A stretch of 5,986 nucleotides of DNA from a virus (Duplodnaviria > Heunggongvirae > Uroviricota > Caudoviricetes), in IMG/VR virus record IMGVR_UViG_2778261171_000001, one strand, 5' to 3'. Numbering within the stretch: the first letter of the stretch is position 1; each line of letters begins with the position of its first letter. This document shows, piece after piece, positions 1-5,986 of the stretch. The position numbers and the translations under genes were made by a program. Below the pieces are notes generated by a model that was not told where the DNA came from, made no database searches, and saw only the letters and a list, made by a program, of their open reading frames with translations.

Positions 1-427
1 GAACTGCCGGAGGCGTAGGCCATTCAATATCTGGCGCACCGGAAGTATCGACCAGCTCCAGTGCGTCCAGATAATCCAGCCACAAATTATATTGCGCCAG
101 TTCCTCACCTTTCAGACGACCAATAGCCGCTTTACCTGGCCATTGCTTACCGTGCATATAATTATTGGCTTCATCGATACGAATTTGTTTTTCATTCTTA
201 TTTTTCAGAATAAGTTCTTCTTCAGTCATAGGCGGGGCATCTTCCCAGATGGGCAGGCCATCTGCATGGGAGCGAATTTTGCCTTTCGGTGGATTTTGCG
301 AATATTGATAAAATAATTCATCTGAAACTTCTTTTGCATCTGCTGGCCACGATCCAGCATCCTCATAGCTCTCTTTGTTAATATCTGAAACAAAAATATT
401 ATGTGCTGCACTGTAGAAAAATGTCAT
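1..427 (-). CDS. Tail fiber assembly protein (Tfa, Mu U / lambda Tfa-like chaperone); C-terminal few residues lie beyond the window edge
   Basis: Not in the ORF track because it has no in-window stop. Hand translation of the reverse complement from the ATG at 427..425 gives 142 codons with no stop: MTFFYSAAHNIFVSDINKESYEDAGSWPADAKEVSDELFYQYSQNPPKGKIRSHADGLPIWEDAPPMTEEELILKNKNEKQIRIDEANNYMHGKQWPGKAAIGRLKGEELAQYNLWLDYLDALELVDTSGAPDIEWPTPPAV... The C-terminal segment (W..Y..L..VDTS.APDIEWP..P) matches the conserved C-terminal motif of phage tail fiber assembly proteins as I recall it. The start lies 1 nt after the tail fiber stop (TGA-T-ATG) with a GGGG Shine-Dalgarno-like run about 9 nt upstream. 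Confidence 0.8.
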   Translation of the reverse strand, partial: MTFFYSAAHNIFVSDINKESYEDAGSWPADAKEVSDELFYQYSQNPPKGKIRSHADGLPIWEDAPPMTEEELILKNKNEKQIRIDEANNYMHGKQWPGKAAIGRLKGEELAQYNLWLDYLDALELVDTSGAPDIEWPTPPAV

Positions 428-428
428 A

Positions 429-1166
429 TCAGTAACCCCATGCTTCATAAGAGATTTCAGCGTTCGGTAGCGCGCCCAGCGACGGGCTTCCACCGTTGCC
501 AAGAATGTTCGCCACTCCCCATATCTTCACGCCCGTTCTGCTTAAATTAGAATACATCGCCATGTTGTAGGATGGGACGCCACTTTCTTGGTTGTGCAAT
601 GCAAACCGAACACAAGCATTTGGGAACGCCACTGGGAATGTCATGGTCTGGGGAGTCAAAGAGCTTACTGTTGGGGTCATACCTAAAATCTGAATTAAGC
701 CATTCGCGTAATAATTAATAGTGTAAGTAGTGGTTGTTACTCGACGGACGCTATCCAACGTTACCAGGCGGATGGCTGTGTGAGTGTCCTCATGCATAAG
801 ATAAGGGGCAAGTTCACTTCCTAAGTAGAACCCTGCTTCTTTACAGGTATCACCAATTATCGCGTTGGTTAATCCAAGGTTTTCGAGAGCCGTTTTCACC
901 GTGCCATCCGATTTGATATCGCCAAACGGATTCTTGCGGCTTAACAGCAGCGCGCGAAGCGCGGTAAGTAGCTGGTCGTGCCGCCCCTTATCCAGGCTGG
1001 CACCGGACGCCTCCACAACGCTGCAAAGCTCCTCCTGCAACATGTCAAAGTAGTCATCATCCAGATCGGTGGCAGGCGTGCCGGTCTGGGGGTTACCACG
1101 GGTAAAACCGTTCTTACCCGCGCCGAACTTATCCTTCTGCGCGGTTTTCGTGTCTATACGATGCAT
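429..1166 (-). CDS. Tail fiber protein (short, 245 aa), with a conserved baseplate-proximal N-terminal part and a divergent distal part
   Basis: ORF-track ORF with ATG start at 1166..1164 and TGA stop at 431..429. A GGAG Shine-Dalgarno lies 6 nt upstream (minus-strand reading of 1173..1176). The gene sits between the DUF2313 (gp48-like) gene and the Tfa chaperone, which is the canonical position of the Mu S fiber. The N-terminal region (DDDYFDMLQEELCSVVEASGASLDKGRHDQLLTALRAL) resembles the conserved N-terminal module of Tfa-dependent fibers as I recall it. The distal part is AT-richer than the rest of the operon. Confidence 0.7.
   Translation of the reverse strand: MHRIDTKTAQKDKFGAGKNGFTRGNPQTGTPATDLDDDYFDMLQEELCSVVEASGASLDKGRHDQLLTALRALLLSRKNPFGDIKSDGTVKTALENLGLTNAIIGDTCKEAGFYLGSELAPYLMHEDTHTAIRLVTLDSVRRVTTTTYTINYYANGLIQILGMTPTVSSLTPQTMTFPVAFPNACVRFALHNQESGVPSYNMAMYSNLSRTGVKIWGVANILGNGGSPSLGALPNAEISYEAWGY
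857..890. other. Candidate relic or partial Din-family (Hin/Gin/Cin/Pin) inversion crossover site embedded in the tail fiber coding sequence
   Basis: Forward sequence TTATCGCGTTGGTTAATCCAAGGTTTTCGAGAGC contains the core AATCC-AA-GGTTTTCGAGA. One half matches the hix/gix half-site consensus (…AAAACC NN GGTTTT…) well, by my count 9 of 12 against hixL as recalled from memory; the other half is degenerate at about 5 of 12. It sits at the GC-rich to AT-rich transition of the gene, within codons for ALENLGLTNAI. Confidence 0.25.
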
Positions 1167-1169
1167 GGA

Positions 1170-1754
1170 TTACTCCGGATATTTAAAAATTACGTAGGTA
1201 TGCGACGGGCAGAGTTTGTTAAGCACACATTCGACAACTGTGTCGCCCCAGATACGCAGTGCGGAATCACAGGGATCGCCACATGCCATCCAGGTGGTGT
1301 TGGTGGCGGCTGGCATGTTGACCTGCCAGTAATACCGCCATTCAGGCGCGTTCACAGCGTCAGTACAGGCCGATGAGCAGGTGAACGTGCTTTTGTCGTA
1401 TCGCGTGATGGTGGCATCTGGTCTGCCCAGGGCAGCAAGCTGTGCAAGATAAAAATCCTCGTTGATGCCGCCCGCCAGGTTAACCTTCGCATCCAGTCGT
1501 TGCTGACGCTGGCGAAGGGTCTGTGTTCCTGCGGGAATACATTCATCCGGCAGGCCGCACAGACGCTCCCAGCGATTTATCAGTTCGGTGGTGGTGCGCG
1601 GATCCAGCTCCCGCATCAGGGCATCCGCACGCTGATGAACGCGGGTTAATGACGGTGCCGCACCGGCAATCGCCGGATCGCTGGCTGACCACGCCGGACC
1701 GGGCGGCAGCAGTGCCGACAACAGGCGGATGTAATCATCGTTTGTCACGTCCAT
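1170..1754 (-). CDS. Phage tail protein of the DUF2313 / YmfQ family (Mu gp48-like)
   Basis: 194-aa ORF with ATG start at 1754..1752 that overlaps the upstream gene's stop by 10 nt, and TAA stop at 1172..1170. A GGGGA Shine-Dalgarno-like run lies about 7 nt upstream. Size and position (between baseplate J and the tail fiber) match Mu gp48; the family call is from synteny and recollection, not a search. Confidence 0.75.
1173..1176 (-). promoter_or_regulatory. Shine-Dalgarno sequence (GGAG) for the tail fiber gene
   Basis: Forward ctcc at 1173..1176 reads GGAG on the minus strand, 6 nt upstream of the ATG at 1166..1164. Confidence 0.45.
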
Positions 1755-2803
1755 GAAATCGTCCCCAGAACCGCCAGTTCATTTTTTGCAATGGAGATAT
1801 TTTCCGCCGGTGCAAGCAACTGATGGCTGTATTCCCCGTTCGCACCGGAAATCGCTTCACTGATACGCGACACCTTCAGTTCTCCCTGCGGATAACCATC
1901 ACGCAGCAGGAACGAACGCAACTCCGCGGTGATGGCAGCCCGTATTTCCGGTGTATCCGGCGTCACACGGATATGAAAATCCACCGTATGCGCCACCGGC
2001 CTGAACACATACAAATCAGAGCCTGCCACCGGGGCCAGTGGCCCGATATGTTGTCTTGCCGCCGTTTCCGTTGATTCTTCCGGAATGGGATTAATCAGGT
2101 CACTGCCGGCAATCATCACACCGACAGTCCCCGTTCCCATCCAGTGACGGTATGCCCATGCGCGGGTAATGCCGGGCACTTCTTTAGCCCAGACAACATA
2201 GTCCCCGTCAGCCCCGCCCTGAGGCGTCCAGTAATACCGCTCAATGACGCGGGCGCGCCACGTTTCCAGATCTTCAGTATCAAATCCACCTGTCAGAGTG
2301 TCTGCCACGCCGGAAGACGGCAGACCATTAACCGGCGTGACCAGGATTAATGACGTACCGTCGTCAGCGTTACCGACCGCGCCTGCACTTGAGCAGGCGA
2401 TCGGCACGCGCAGGACACCACCGGCGCTGGTTGCATCGGCAGTTGCCGTGTACTGAACCAGGTCATCGCGCTGAATAACACTCCCGGCGGTCACCTTCAG
2501 GCCATCGCTGACGCCTTCCCAGCGCATATACCCGCTGGCAGTCGTGGCCCCCTTGCGCGGACACCGTTTCATCGCAGCATGTCGCGCCAGCCAGGACTCA
2601 TCGCACAGGTCAGGCAGCATGTTCATTGCCAGATAATCGATGTACCCGTAAACCGTATGCAGCGCCGCCGCATACACCTTTGCCCGCACGTCTTCATCCA
2701 TGCGCCGGAGCGTGTCGCTGACGTCCAGCCTGGCGAATAAATCGTTACGGAGCATACTGATATTTTCTGCCAGCGTCGGGCGCTGAAATTCACTGTCCGC
2801 CAT
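1745..2803 (-). CDS. Baseplate J-like protein (Mu gp47 / P2 gpJ family baseplate wedge)
   Basis: 352-aa ORF with ATG start at 2803..2801 and TGA stop at 1747..1745. The start overlaps the gp46-like gene's end by 14 nt. Length and position match Mu gp47; the protein looks like baseplate J family members as I recall them. Confidence 0.85.
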
Positions 2804-3218
2804 GCGTTATCGCACTCCACAGATCATCAAAAGAAATCATTACCGGTCCGTCACGACGCCAGAGGGTGATACTGTTACCCAGCTCATTAATCCCGGTGCG
2901 GCGGATATCCAGATCAATACGGGACACCACGCCGTCATCAATCATCCATTGCAGGCATTCGCGGGTATATCCCCTTACCGTCTGCACCAGTTGATTGGTC
3001 AGTTTGCTGCGCTGAAGCAGCCACAGTCGGGAGCCGTAACGGTCATTCTGTACCGCAGGCCAGGTATCCCCCCACCATCCCATCGGGACGTCGGCGTTGT
3101 CATCAGGCTCCGCCCGCCGCCAGGTAAACAGGGAAATCACCACGGCGCGGGTCAGCGGATCCAGCGGTGCGCTGGCGCAGGTGCGTTTACCGTTCACCGT
3201 CAGCCACAGTTCCATCAT
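2790..3218 (-). CDS. Phage GP46-family baseplate protein (Mu gp46-like)
   Basis: 142-aa ORF with tandem ATG ATG at 3218..3213 and TGA stop at 2792..2790. The start overlaps the spike gene's stop in an ATGA arrangement. Size and position between the spike and baseplate J match Mu gp46. The exact start (first or second ATG) is uncertain. Confidence 0.7.
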   Translation of the reverse strand: MMELWLTVNGKRTCASAPLDPLTRAVVISLFTWRRAEPDDNADVPMGWWGDTWPAVQNDRYGSRLWLLQRSKLTNQLVQTVRGYTRECLQWMIDDGVVSRIDLDIRRTGINELGNSITLWRRDGPVMISFDDLWSAITHGGQ

Positions 3219-3763
3219 GCCTCCATCGCTTTATCCGGTTTGTCGGTGTTACTGCCCTGACCGTTCTCTCTGTGACGATGCCCGTTATAGGCAAGCCGCA
3301 TCGCTGACATGGTGGTACCGCCGGAGTCGCACAGGTCTTTCACCTGTCCGGTCACTTCCAGGTCCATTTCAAAACGTGCTCTGGGCGCATTGCGAAACGT
3401 GATCGTTTTACCTGCACCGTCCACCACGATCCCCTCCCGGGTCAGCGTCACAGACTGCCCCTGATCGTCATAGACAGCCACCTCACCCGTCTGCAGCCCT
3501 TTCAGGCGGTAGCGCCGGTCCGACACCGTAACAACCACCGCATGAGAACGGTCGCCATCCGGAAACAACACCACCGCTTCCGCACCGCTGTTTGCCCTTG
3601 CGGTAAAACCGTAGGGTTCAAGATGTTCAATCCCGGCTTTGGGTTCACCGGCAATCAGGGACACATCCACGGTCTGACATTTCGTGGCGGCACTGATGCT
3701 TTTCACCACTGCCCGCCCAATCAGGCCGAGAAGTTGTCGCTGCATGGCTTCAATCGTCCTCAT
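3215..3763 (-). CDS. Baseplate central spike / baseplate assembly protein V family (Mu gp45-like)
   Basis: 182-aa ORF with ATG start at 3763..3761 and TGA stop at 3217..3215. An AGGAGG Shine-Dalgarno lies about 10 nt upstream (minus-strand reading of 3774..3779). The start overlaps the hub gene's stop by 1 nt (TGATG). The protein has a beta-rich composition and an H-R-H motif near the C-terminus, consistent with a spike protein; size and position match Mu gp45. Confidence 0.8.
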   Translation of the reverse strand: MRTIEAMQRQLLGLIGRAVVKSISAATKCQTVDVSLIAGEPKAGIEHLEPYGFTARANSGAEAVVLFPDGDRSHAVVVTVSDRRYRLKGLQTGEVAVYDDQGQSVTLTREGIVVDGAGKTITFRNAPRARFEMDLEVTGQVKDLCDSGGTTMSAMRLAYNGHRHRENGQGSNTDKPDKAMEA

Positions 3764-4842
3764 CAGAACGGGTCCTCCTGTACTCTGGCTTTTTTCTTTT
3801 TCCGCGCGCCGGGGTCTTCGGGTTCAGGCAGATAAGCATCAGGCGGGCCGACACGGATTTCCGTCAGGGTGCCGTTCTGGTCCTGAGTAAACGTGACTTC
3901 CGAAACAAGCAGTTCGGTATTGTCGAAACCACAGACCGGATCGAAGACAATCACCCGCTGGTTGGGCTGCCACAGCGTACCGTTACCCTGTCGCCAGCCC
4001 TGAACCACATAGGTGGTTTCATCCGTCCGCGCCGCCCGTTGTCGGGCTTCAAAGTCCGCACGGGCAATACAGCCTGCCCCCGTAGCCTGCCCTGTCTGCC
4101 TGATATACATCGGACGGTAACGGGCAATAAATGCGTCCTCTGTGCGGGCCCGCAGCGCGGTGGTGGTGGCCTCACCGAAATCATCGTCGTTTCCGGCACG
4201 CTGCCCCGCCACCTGGTAAACAGAAAACCGCTCCCGGATACTCTTCTCCGTATCACAGGAAAGGATATTTTCCCCAAGTACCAGCGCGGTATGTGCCCGC
4301 GTTGAGCCAATACCGCCAATCACCAGCCTGCCGTGCGGGTCGTCGTAAGCCAGTGCCTGCTGCTGACCGAGTATTTTGTTGATCACCTCAATCACCGTTT
4401 CGCCGTGATCAGGCTGGACATCAGGAATAACACCCGACGGCGCACTGTTGTTCACCACCTCAATGCCGAAAGGCGCAGCAAGCGCCTGCGTAATCTGTAC
4501 CAGCGATCGTCCGTTAAACTGTGTCGGTTCGGCTGCACAGTCAATCAGGTCAGCGGTCAGACTGCGTCCGGCAATACCGGTGCTGACCGAACGGGCATCG
4601 TAACGAACGGGCGTCGCCTCCACCCAGCCGGTGATCACCAGCTCATCACCAATCAGCACCTCCACTTTTGAACCGTTTTTAATGCGCGGCTGAAGCGTGG
4701 TGATACCCTCATCTCCCGGCCACTGTCGGGTGATCTCCACACTGAAATCCCGCGCCAGCCGTTCAATACCGGCACCGATGCGTACCGATGTCCAGCCATT
4801 CCACTCCCGGCCATTTACCCGTAGCGTGACATTGTCGTTCAT
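3763..4842 (-). CDS. Baseplate hub protein, Mu P (gp44) / late-control-D-like family
   Basis: 359-aa ORF with ATG start at 4842..4840 overlapping the upstream gene's stop (ATGA), and TGA stop at 3765..3763. Size and position immediately downstream of the DNA-circulation-like gene match Mu P. It has a lysine-rich C-terminal tail (ARKKKKARVQEDPF). Confidence 0.8.
   Translation of the reverse strand: MNDNVTLRVNGREWNGWTSVRIGAGIERLARDFSVEITRQWPGDEGITTLQPRIKNGSKVEVLIGDELVITGWVEATPVRYDARSVSTGIAGRSLTADLIDCAAEPTQFNGRSLVQITQALAAPFGIEVVNNSAPSGVIPDVQPDHGETVIEVINKILGQQQALAYDDPHGRLVIGGIGSTRAHTALVLGENILSCDTEKSIRERFSVYQVAGQRAGNDDDFGEATTTALRARTEDAFIARYRPMYIRQTGQATGAGCIARADFEARQRAARTDETTYVVQGWRQGNGTLWQPNQRVIVFDPVCGFDNTELLVSEVTFTQDQNGTLTEIRVGPPDAYLPEPEDPGARKKKKARVQEDPF
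3774..3779 (-). promoter_or_regulatory. Shine-Dalgarno sequence (AGGAGG) for the spike gene, embedded in the 3' end of the hub gene
   Basis: Forward cctcct at 3774..3779 reads AGGAGG on the minus strand, 10 nt upstream of the ATG at 3763..3761. Confidence 0.5.
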
Positions 4843-5986
4843 TGCACTGGCACCTTCAGAGGGATCACCGGCACAAAGCCGGGATGCGTAATGGCATTAC
4901 GCCGGATAATGTCCGCGTCACGCGCCGCGTTATCAAACCAGGTCGCCGCCAGCACCAGCGCGGGTAAAACCTCATCCGGTGTGCGCTGAATGATCCGTGC
5001 AGACTGTTCAAGGCGCGTGTTGATATCCGCATTCAGATCTGCTTTCACCCGGCGCAGCGCCAGAAACAGCGCATCACTGGTTGTACGGGACAACTCCTTA
5101 TCAATTGCCGTATTCAGTGTGTCGCGAATGTCAGTCAGTTCTTCCCACGTCGGCAGGTCAACCGTGTTTTTCACCGCCGGTGCATTGTTCAGTGCCGGAT
5201 GCGTGACGGAAGGCCAGCCAGTGCTCTGCGCAGGTGTTGTTGCCTGCCCCACTGCGGAATTCTGCATCACCGCGGAAGTTGTTGGCGCAGGCAATCGGGT
5301 GATGGCATACGCCGCTTCGCTGATTGCGGTCGTACGAAGGGTGCTGGCAACCACATTACGCTGCTGCGTAGCCGTGGCGGTGGTTTTACTGTCCGTTTTC
5401 CAGACGCCGCGCGGTTGCAGATCGCTGCCGAGGCTGACACCGGAAAGCGTTTTGATCATGGTGACCAGGTCGCTGGCGTTACCATAAAGGCGTTTCCCGG
5501 TACGCCACATTTTCTGCACCTGCTCAACGAAATTTTTGCCTGACGATGGCGGCGGCAGAAGTACCGAGATATCCCCCTGCAACAGCCTGGCGGCATCCGA
5601 TACGGCAGAATCCACCACTTTCATCGCATCAGAAACATACCCCAGCATTATGCTGGCATTACCGATAACGTCGTTCTGCACGAAATCCGCCACACCATCG
5701 ATACTGAAACCGCTGAAGCTGTCACTGATGCAGTCATCCAGTGCAGAACAGGATGACATCAGCGTCTGCGCCGTCGCCGCACCTGATGTGGGGTAAGAGA
5801 GTTCTCCTGCTTCGACAAACTTCAGGTCAAAGCGGACAATACGCCCTTCACTTTTCGATGTGCTGACCCGAACTTCCCCGGGCTTTGTTGAATAAATCGA
5901 ACTTTTGCTGAGTTGAAGGATCAGATCACGCATCTTCCCGACAACGCAGACCGTTCCGTGGCAAAGCAAAAGTTCAAAATCACCAA
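4839..5986 (-). CDS. DNA circulation protein family (Mu N / gp43-like), C-terminal ~380 codons only; 5' end is beyond the right edge of the window
   Basis: The reading frame is open from the window edge to the TGA at 4841..4839. The M at 5969 in the ORF track is actually a TTG codon (forward caa at 5967..5969), and the frame continues without a stop to position 5986, so the true start is off-window. Assignment is by synteny (the gene immediately upstream of the P-like hub gene) and size; I do not recognise the sequence itself with certainty. Confidence 0.6.
   Translation of the reverse strand, partial: GDFELLLCHGTVCVVGKMRDLILQLSKSSIYSTKPGEVRVSTSKSEGRIVRFDLKFVEAGELSYPTSGAATAQTLMSSCSALDDCISDSFSGFSIDGVADFVQNDVIGNASIMLGYVSDAMKVVDSAVSDAARLLQGDISVLLPPPSSGKNFVEQVQKMWRTGKRLYGNASDLVTMIKTLSGVSLGSDLQPRGVWKTDSKTTATATQQRNVVASTLRTTAISEAAYAITRLPAPTTSAVMQNSAVGQATTPAQSTGWPSVTHPALNNAPAVKNTVDLPTWEELTDIRDTLNTAIDKELSRTTSDALFLALRRVKADLNADINTRLEQSARIIQRTPDEVLPALVLAATWFDNAARDADIIRRNAITHPGFVPVIPLKVPVQ

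Follow-up and report, generated by a model that had tools for sequence, protein, structure and literature searches.

The tail fibre gene of the prophage sequence IMGVR_UViG_2778261171_000001 changes composition partway through its reading frame, and at the point of change lies a short motif that a first-pass annotation, made from the letters alone, had likened to a crossover site of the Din family of serine invertases. Is this the fibre-side site of a host-range inversion switch and, if so, is the switch functional or a relic? To answer these questions we compared the whole analysed stretch of 5,986 nt, referred to here as the window, with complete Escherichia coli genomes, phages and contigs. 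Our preferred reading, to which we assign a probability of about 0.78, is that positions 864-889 are the fibre-side (pixL-equivalent) crossover site of a Pin/Gin-type host-range segment, and that in the lineage of the window the switch is most likely dead, with one tip, tip B, fixed.

Organization of the window

The prophage is e14/SfV-like and has a baseplate of Mu type; the window covers its distal tail module, and all genes of the window lie on the (-) strand. In coding direction these are the DNA-circularisation protein N (4839-5969), which is shortened compared with its relatives, a baseplate P/gp44-like protein (3763-4842), gp45 (3215-3763), gp46 (2790-3218), gp47/J (1745-2803), gp48/YmfQ (1170-1754), a 245-aa tail fibre with an intact ORF (429-1166) and the tail fibre assembly chaperone TfaB (Caudo_TAP; 1-427, the final 11 nt including the stop codon being off the window). 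The fibre gene consists of a constant StfP-like N-terminal part of approximately codons 1-96 (878-1166, (-) strand) and a variable C-terminal tip with a Gp53-like_C domain (429-875, (-) strand). The tip, of which TfaB is the cassette partner, is termed cassette B below.

The right-hand end of the window has a different history. In its last 106 nt (5881-5986) the window departs from every one of the ten relatives and matches an IS903B terminus (IS5 family; GGCTTTGTTGAATAAATCG...). Interruption by this element leaves gene N as a 376-aa ORF with a TTG start, compared with 442 aa in the relatives, and the prophage of the window is therefore defective.

The constant/variable border of the fibre gene

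The change of composition within the fibre gene was confirmed. GC content drops from 56.7% (GC3 67%) in the constant part to 47.7% (GC3 48.6%) in the variable part, the remaining tail module being at 57.8%. Sequence similarity ends at the same place. The constant part was found in 1,850 of 5,426 complete E. coli genomes, and only two of these extend across the junction. In a sample of 59 records spread over the 1,859 matching E. coli records, the match of other fibre genes started at window 869-874 in every non-self row; among phages the limit of homology was at 874 for SfV, SfI, SfII and SfIV and at 871 for vB_EcoM-689R6. A break of similarity between 857 and 890 had been specified beforehand for a true junction, and this is where fibre homologues end, both in E. 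coli records and in phages (871-874). By homology break and GC shift alike, the site described below is located at the constant/variable border of the fibre gene.

In the nearest complete genome the NCBI pipeline PGAP cut the 245-aa fibre ORF (L001 7429-8166) into two annotations: an 'stfP pseudogene, missing C-terminus' ending at window 870 and a separate 'gp53-like domain protein' at 429-797. The ORF is intact, and we regard this split as an annotation artefact, since a mosaic junction lies at the crossover site.

A pixL-type site at the border

The string AATCC-AA-GGTTTTCGAGA, which the first-pass annotation had placed at the junction, is located at 871-888. It forms part of a 26-bp Din-family site of pixL type, GTTGGTTAATCC-AA-GGTTTTCGAGAG (864-889, (-) strand), composed of two 12-bp imperfectly symmetric half-sites around a 2-bp core, which is AA as in pix, cix and hix. 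In the coding direction of the fibre it reads CTCTCGAAAACC-TT-GGATTAACCAAC and encodes ..LENLGLTN... The site agrees at 19 of 26 positions with published pixL, TTCTCCCAAACC-AA-GGTTTTCGAGAG (PMC3241671 Table 3).

The two halves are very different in quality. The outer half-site GGTTTTCGAGAG on the constant side (878-889) is identical to that of e14 pixL and has 6 of the 7 specified positions of the Din half-site consensus, as had been anticipated for the better half. Together with the core (876-889) it is identical in 14 of 14 nt to published pixL and to K-12 e14 stfP, in which the equivalent codons read CTCTCGAAAACC-TT-GGTTTGGGAGAA. The central dinucleotide AA (TT in the coding strand; 876-877) is the point of strand exchange, and the cassette diverges directly past it in all contexts found. 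The inner half-site GTTGGTTAATCC on the cassette side (864-875) is degenerate, sharing 5 of 12 nt with the e14 inner half and having the consensus base at 3 of 7 positions. It is kept wherever cassette B occurs, including beside an invertase gene.

The bare motif is not statistically significant: with up to one mismatch, TCNNAAACCWWGG is expected 0.32 times in the window, and at least one match was seen in 50 of 200 shuffles. A scan of genome contigs with the 14-mer GTTGGTTAATCCAA returned chance matches in unrelated taxa only; a 27-mer query against viral contigs was more informative. As motif statistics give no support, the argument rests on homology and on comparison of junctions.

The left edge of the window and IS-truncated relatives

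The first-pass annotation had suggested that the left edge of the window is entering a G-segment-like switch. The sequence supports this: window 1-18 on the (+) strand is the 3′ end (18 nt, ELPEA-stop) of a second, convergent Tfa gene belonging to an alternative silent cassette (L001 CDS 6425-7018 ends at window 18). The closest complete genome is that of E. coli 2022CK-00450, with one mismatch in the first 1,800 nt. Beyond the left edge it contains the convergent Tfa gene, then an alternative fibre C-terminal fragment on the (+) strand, and then unrelated DNA. The fragment is cut at its 5′ end by ISKpn26, and left of the fibre locus in this genome neither a partner site nor an invertase gene was found. 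An inverted-repeat search in 2022CK-00450 did not find a partner either, as is to be expected of a genome from which the partner has been deleted; even in intact copies the two sites are too dissimilar to register as repeats. In the IS-truncated relatives ISKpn26 (IS5 family) lies approximately 27 nt inside the segment from the expected far-end site, and the silent tip of this lineage is a third allele.

Three further features of this region were observed. The sole difference from 2022CK-00450 in the first 1,800 nt is at window 1648: an A in the window, where the ymfQ/gp48 ORF is intact, against a T in 2022CK-00450 that gives rise to a stop within the gene, annotated there as a ymfQ pseudogene. 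The 3′ ends of the convergent Tfa genes overlap by 29 nt (L001 6990-7018). The conserved Tfa C-terminal region, window 1 to approximately 197, is 89-97% identical to many P2-like and other phages and constitutes a second mosaic boundary of the cassette.

How general the IS-truncated layout is can be judged from the exact 245-aa fibre protein, for which 237 blocks are on record, ten contexts being listed. Nine of the ten listed contexts have this layout, with neither partner site nor invertase, and the two complete E. coli genomes covering this region share it; L133 alone is intact. Over window 1-5880 the IS-truncated L136 shows no mismatch, several further IS-truncated relatives show 0-1, and L133 shows at least 65. 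This near-identity to the IS-truncated copies, together with the distance from L133, indicates that the switch of the window is most likely frozen. As the deciding region lies outside the window, this state is read from its haplotype-identical relatives.

Partner site and invertase in intact relatives

The intact relative L133 (Logan ERR13159733) has the identical 245-aa fibre. The alternative tip, here with a Collar domain, is followed by a partner site, TTCTCCCAAACC-AA-CCTTTTTTATAA, and then by a 182-aa Resolvase/HTH_7 gene adjoining yciI-tonB. With PinE the product of this gene has 55% identity, and among solved structures it is closest to the Gin invertase (3uj3, E = 1e-56). Invertase genes with Resolvase and HTH_7 domains are also present in L004, L005, L130, L144 and L146. 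In the intact elements paired sites agree at only 13 of their 26 positions, so that a search for long inverted repeats fails even there.

The proposal that a second site and an invertase gene lie off the window thus holds for L133, with its identical fibre, and fails for the haplotype-identical IS-truncated relatives. The first-pass annotation had also left open whether the site is functional or a relic. For the lineage of the window a relic is the better fit, its haplotype-identical relatives having lost both partner site and invertase.

Inversion of the segment in a sister prophage

The complete genomes of E. coli 1368KP and 2022CK-00450 both carry a sister prophage at yciI-tonB, and several protein accessions are identical between the two. 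The flanks of these prophages are collinear, with 100% and 99.94% identity. The 1,874 bp between them, beside a Gin/Pin-like serine invertase, are in opposite orientation and 99.15% identical. In 1368KP cassette B is silent and lies beside the invertase, with GTTGGTTAATCC-AA-CCTTTTTTATAA, and the expressed fibre has CTCTCACAAACC-TT-GGTTTGGGAGAA. The corresponding junctions in 2022CK-00450 are TTATAAAAAAGG-TT-GGTTTGGGAGAA and GTTGGTTAATCC-AA-GGTTTGTGAGAG. Taken together, the four junctions correspond exactly to what reciprocal exchange at the central dinucleotide produces. An equivalent inversion was found between L004 and L130 (IMG/VR contig), and also in L144 (Logan contig).

Exact reciprocal junctions in otherwise identical prophages are a signature of conservative site-specific recombination. 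Judged by these junction sequences, a site type with a degenerate half-site has recombined in nature, even though its paired sites are alike at only 13 of 26 positions. With one complete genome per orientation, the count is too small for inference of a bias. The expectation that both orientations would be met with is borne out for the sister prophage, which has the same inner half-site; inversion polymorphism was found only in this sister prophage, which shares cassette B and the invertase, and not within the prophage type of the window itself.

The second, Mu-like prophage of the nearest genome, also at yciI-tonB (L146; NZ_CP104681.1 2715173-2722273), has an intact switch, the same inner half-site as the window and the invertase WP_000639140.1. 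In a genome of this type the orphan site, at 3.796 Mb, would coexist with a cognate enzyme in trans, the sites of the yciI prophage being at 2.717-2.719 Mb.

Cassette B in other fibre genes

Cassette B (window 200-875) is rare, being present in only 7 of 5,426 complete genomes, and these represent several different settings. A distant blastn search of the phage collection with cassette B found nothing. In every setting the common sequence ends ..TAATCC-AA and diverges immediately thereafter. At the protein level at least six N-terminal contexts are joined to it at ..GL|TNAIIGD: the e14-type stem, a second Mu-like stem, a 233-aa class, a P2-like 498-aa fibre, a fibre beside a DUF2612 gene, and the silent position beside an invertase.

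Particular cases differ in their surroundings. In L005 (NZ_CP147109.1) cassette B is carried by the 498-aa P2-like fibre of an element with its own invertase, the invertase-side site being TTTTCTTAAACG-TT-GGTTTGGGAGAA. In L003 and L006 the junction again falls on the central dinucleotide; the fibres belong to prophages that have DUF2612 and baseplate J genes, and no invertase is present nearby. L129 (IMGVR_UViG_2734482772_000016, oriented 2142-2500) expresses cassette B and has a site identical to K-12 pixR, TTTTCATAAACG-TT-GGTTTGGGAGAA. The approximately 340 nt beside the latter site contain no ORF of 90 aa or more, and the next ORF encodes a 713-aa protein that is perhaps VgrG-like. L129 may be another independently truncated switch.

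It had been suggested that a single well-conserved half-site could be a fossil of past recombination. The inner half is indeed poor (3 of 7), but decay is not the explanation, as GTTGGTTAATCC is the native cassette end in intact systems. We therefore take the poor inner half to be the native end of cassette B, which by the evidence of its junctions recombines in those systems.

Comparison with known inversion systems

The closest known system is the e14 P segment (pinE, pixL/pixR, stfP-tfaP / tfaE-stfE), which is inverted by PinE, PinQ and PinR (PMC12529663). It has the constant region of the fibre in common with the window at approximately 97% nt identity, the same outer half-site and core in pixL, baseplate neighbours of equal type (ymfQ/gp48 and gp47), and the same order of elements: stem, site, tip with Tfa, convergent Tfa with tip, site, invertase. 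The inner half-site and the entire variable cassette are different. On the invertase side the intact relative has CCTTTTTTATAA where e14 has CGTTTATGAAAA, and only 55% of the residues of its invertase are shared with PinE. Whereas e14 has 16-bp perfect inverted repeats, the two sites of the system described here have 13 of 26 positions in common, and in the lineage of the window, unlike e14, the invertase gene and partner site have probably been deleted.

In the G segment of Mu (Gin, gixL/gixR; S/U versus S′/U′) and the C segment of P1 (Cin, cix) two alternative fibre C-termini and their chaperones are flipped by a serine invertase, the left site being internal to the fibre gene, where constant and variable parts meet. 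The logic of the system of the window is the same, and the site encodes the same ..NLGL-type peptide. The fibre sequences are unrelated, however, and at 245 aa the fibre of the window is much shorter. Its core, AA as in pix, cix and hix, is GA in gix, and its host element is an e14/SfV-like prophage, whereas Mu is a transposable phage.

Precedent for degenerate half-sites, and for the shuffling of cassettes among fibre genes, is provided by the shufflon-like Min system of p15B (mix sites). Strongly degenerate half-sites are included among the Min sites, e.g. mixQ''R' GGTAATCAAGAA (PMC3241671 Table 3). Min has six sites and several overlapping invertible segments, whereas the system of the window is a single two-site segment.

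Discussion

The system thus belongs to the already known Pin/Gin/Cin class. From the e14 P segment it differs in its cassette, which is new, in the unusually poor inner half-site, in the diverged invertase of the intact relatives and, probably, in inactivation mediated by an IS element. By analogy with the Din family, a dimer of the invertase would bind each 26-bp site, and the synapse would cleave at the AA/TT core, rotate and religate. Systems of this family also have a Fis-dependent recombinational enhancer in the 5′ part of the invertase gene, which is off the window here, and the Fis consensus is too degenerate for a scan to be informative. In the intact copies the approximately 180-aa serine invertase would cut both sites and flip approximately 1.9 kb. 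As the reciprocal junctions show, the stem, codons 1 to approximately 96, comes to be fused with one of two sets, tip B plus TfaB or the alternative tip of the opposite strand plus its own Tfa. The window has the first of these states: tip B lies in frame in an intact ORF and would be expressed from the tail operon. In this lineage a rearrangement associated with ISKpn26 has most likely removed the partner site and the invertase gene.

One rival reading concerns the state of the switch, which might still be active in the genome of the window and flip in vivo, with partner site, intact alternative tip and invertase just off the left edge. L133, where the identical fibre is accompanied by a partner site and a 182-aa Resolvase/HTH_7 gene, is an actual example of such an arrangement. 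However, it is from L133 that the window differs at 65 or more positions over 1-5880; from the IS-truncated relatives it differs at none or one, the truncated layout prevails in nine of ten listed contexts and in both complete E. coli genomes covering the region, and the IS903B in gene N fits a decaying element. We consider an active switch unlikely.

The junction itself could have arisen by ordinary homologous or short-homology recombination at the ..NLGL.. coding motif, the likeness to pix being inherited and an invertase having had no part in placing cassette B. Fibres such as those of L003 and L006, to which cassette B is fused with no invertase nearby, would be accounted for in this way, and so would the poor consensus match of the inner half-site. 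Such exchange could fall anywhere in the conserved codons, yet all junctions are at one dinucleotide, and it does not predict exact reciprocal pairs or a segment inverted between otherwise identical prophages beside an invertase gene. Homologous recombination as the sole cause of the junction is rejected on these grounds, and we hold it to be quite improbable that the invertase was uninvolved. That the motif is a chance match with no biological meaning agrees with the non-significant motif-only test; it is scarcely credible given that the gene holding the 14 nt shared with pixL is itself a homologue of 97% identity and that the homology breakpoint coincides with it in every sampled genome. Chance is contradicted by the homology data and was rejected. 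A crossover site of a Pin/Gin-type segment, most likely orphaned in this lineage, is the reading that we retain.

A further reading goes beyond the window and is offered tentatively, as we think it possible but doubtful. The core dinucleotide with the ..GL codons may be a universal splice point, at which Din invertases from prophages in the same cell would transfer tip-plus-chaperone cassettes from one fibre gene to another, unrelated one (Mu-like, P2-like and invertase-less), even by way of half-sites with 3 of 7 consensus positions. The orphan site might also still be cut in trans; the second prophage of the nearest genome encodes a cognate invertase and has the same inner half-site. If this is true, such cutting could drive exchange between prophages or chromosomal inversion. 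Alternatively, the fixed fibre may be kept as an anti-phage, receptor-blocking protein like e14 StfE2 (PMC12529663).

Overall, a classic inversion switch for phage host range has its crossover point at the junction in this fibre gene. In natural isolates a Din site has recombined although one of its half-sites is very poor and it is identical to its partner at only 13 of 26 positions, and switches of this type would be missed by annotators and by tools that search for long inverted repeats. A single fibre-tip cassette has been spliced at the exact dinucleotide onto at least six fibre contexts, and insertion of an IS element can freeze an inversion switch, leaving an orphan site.
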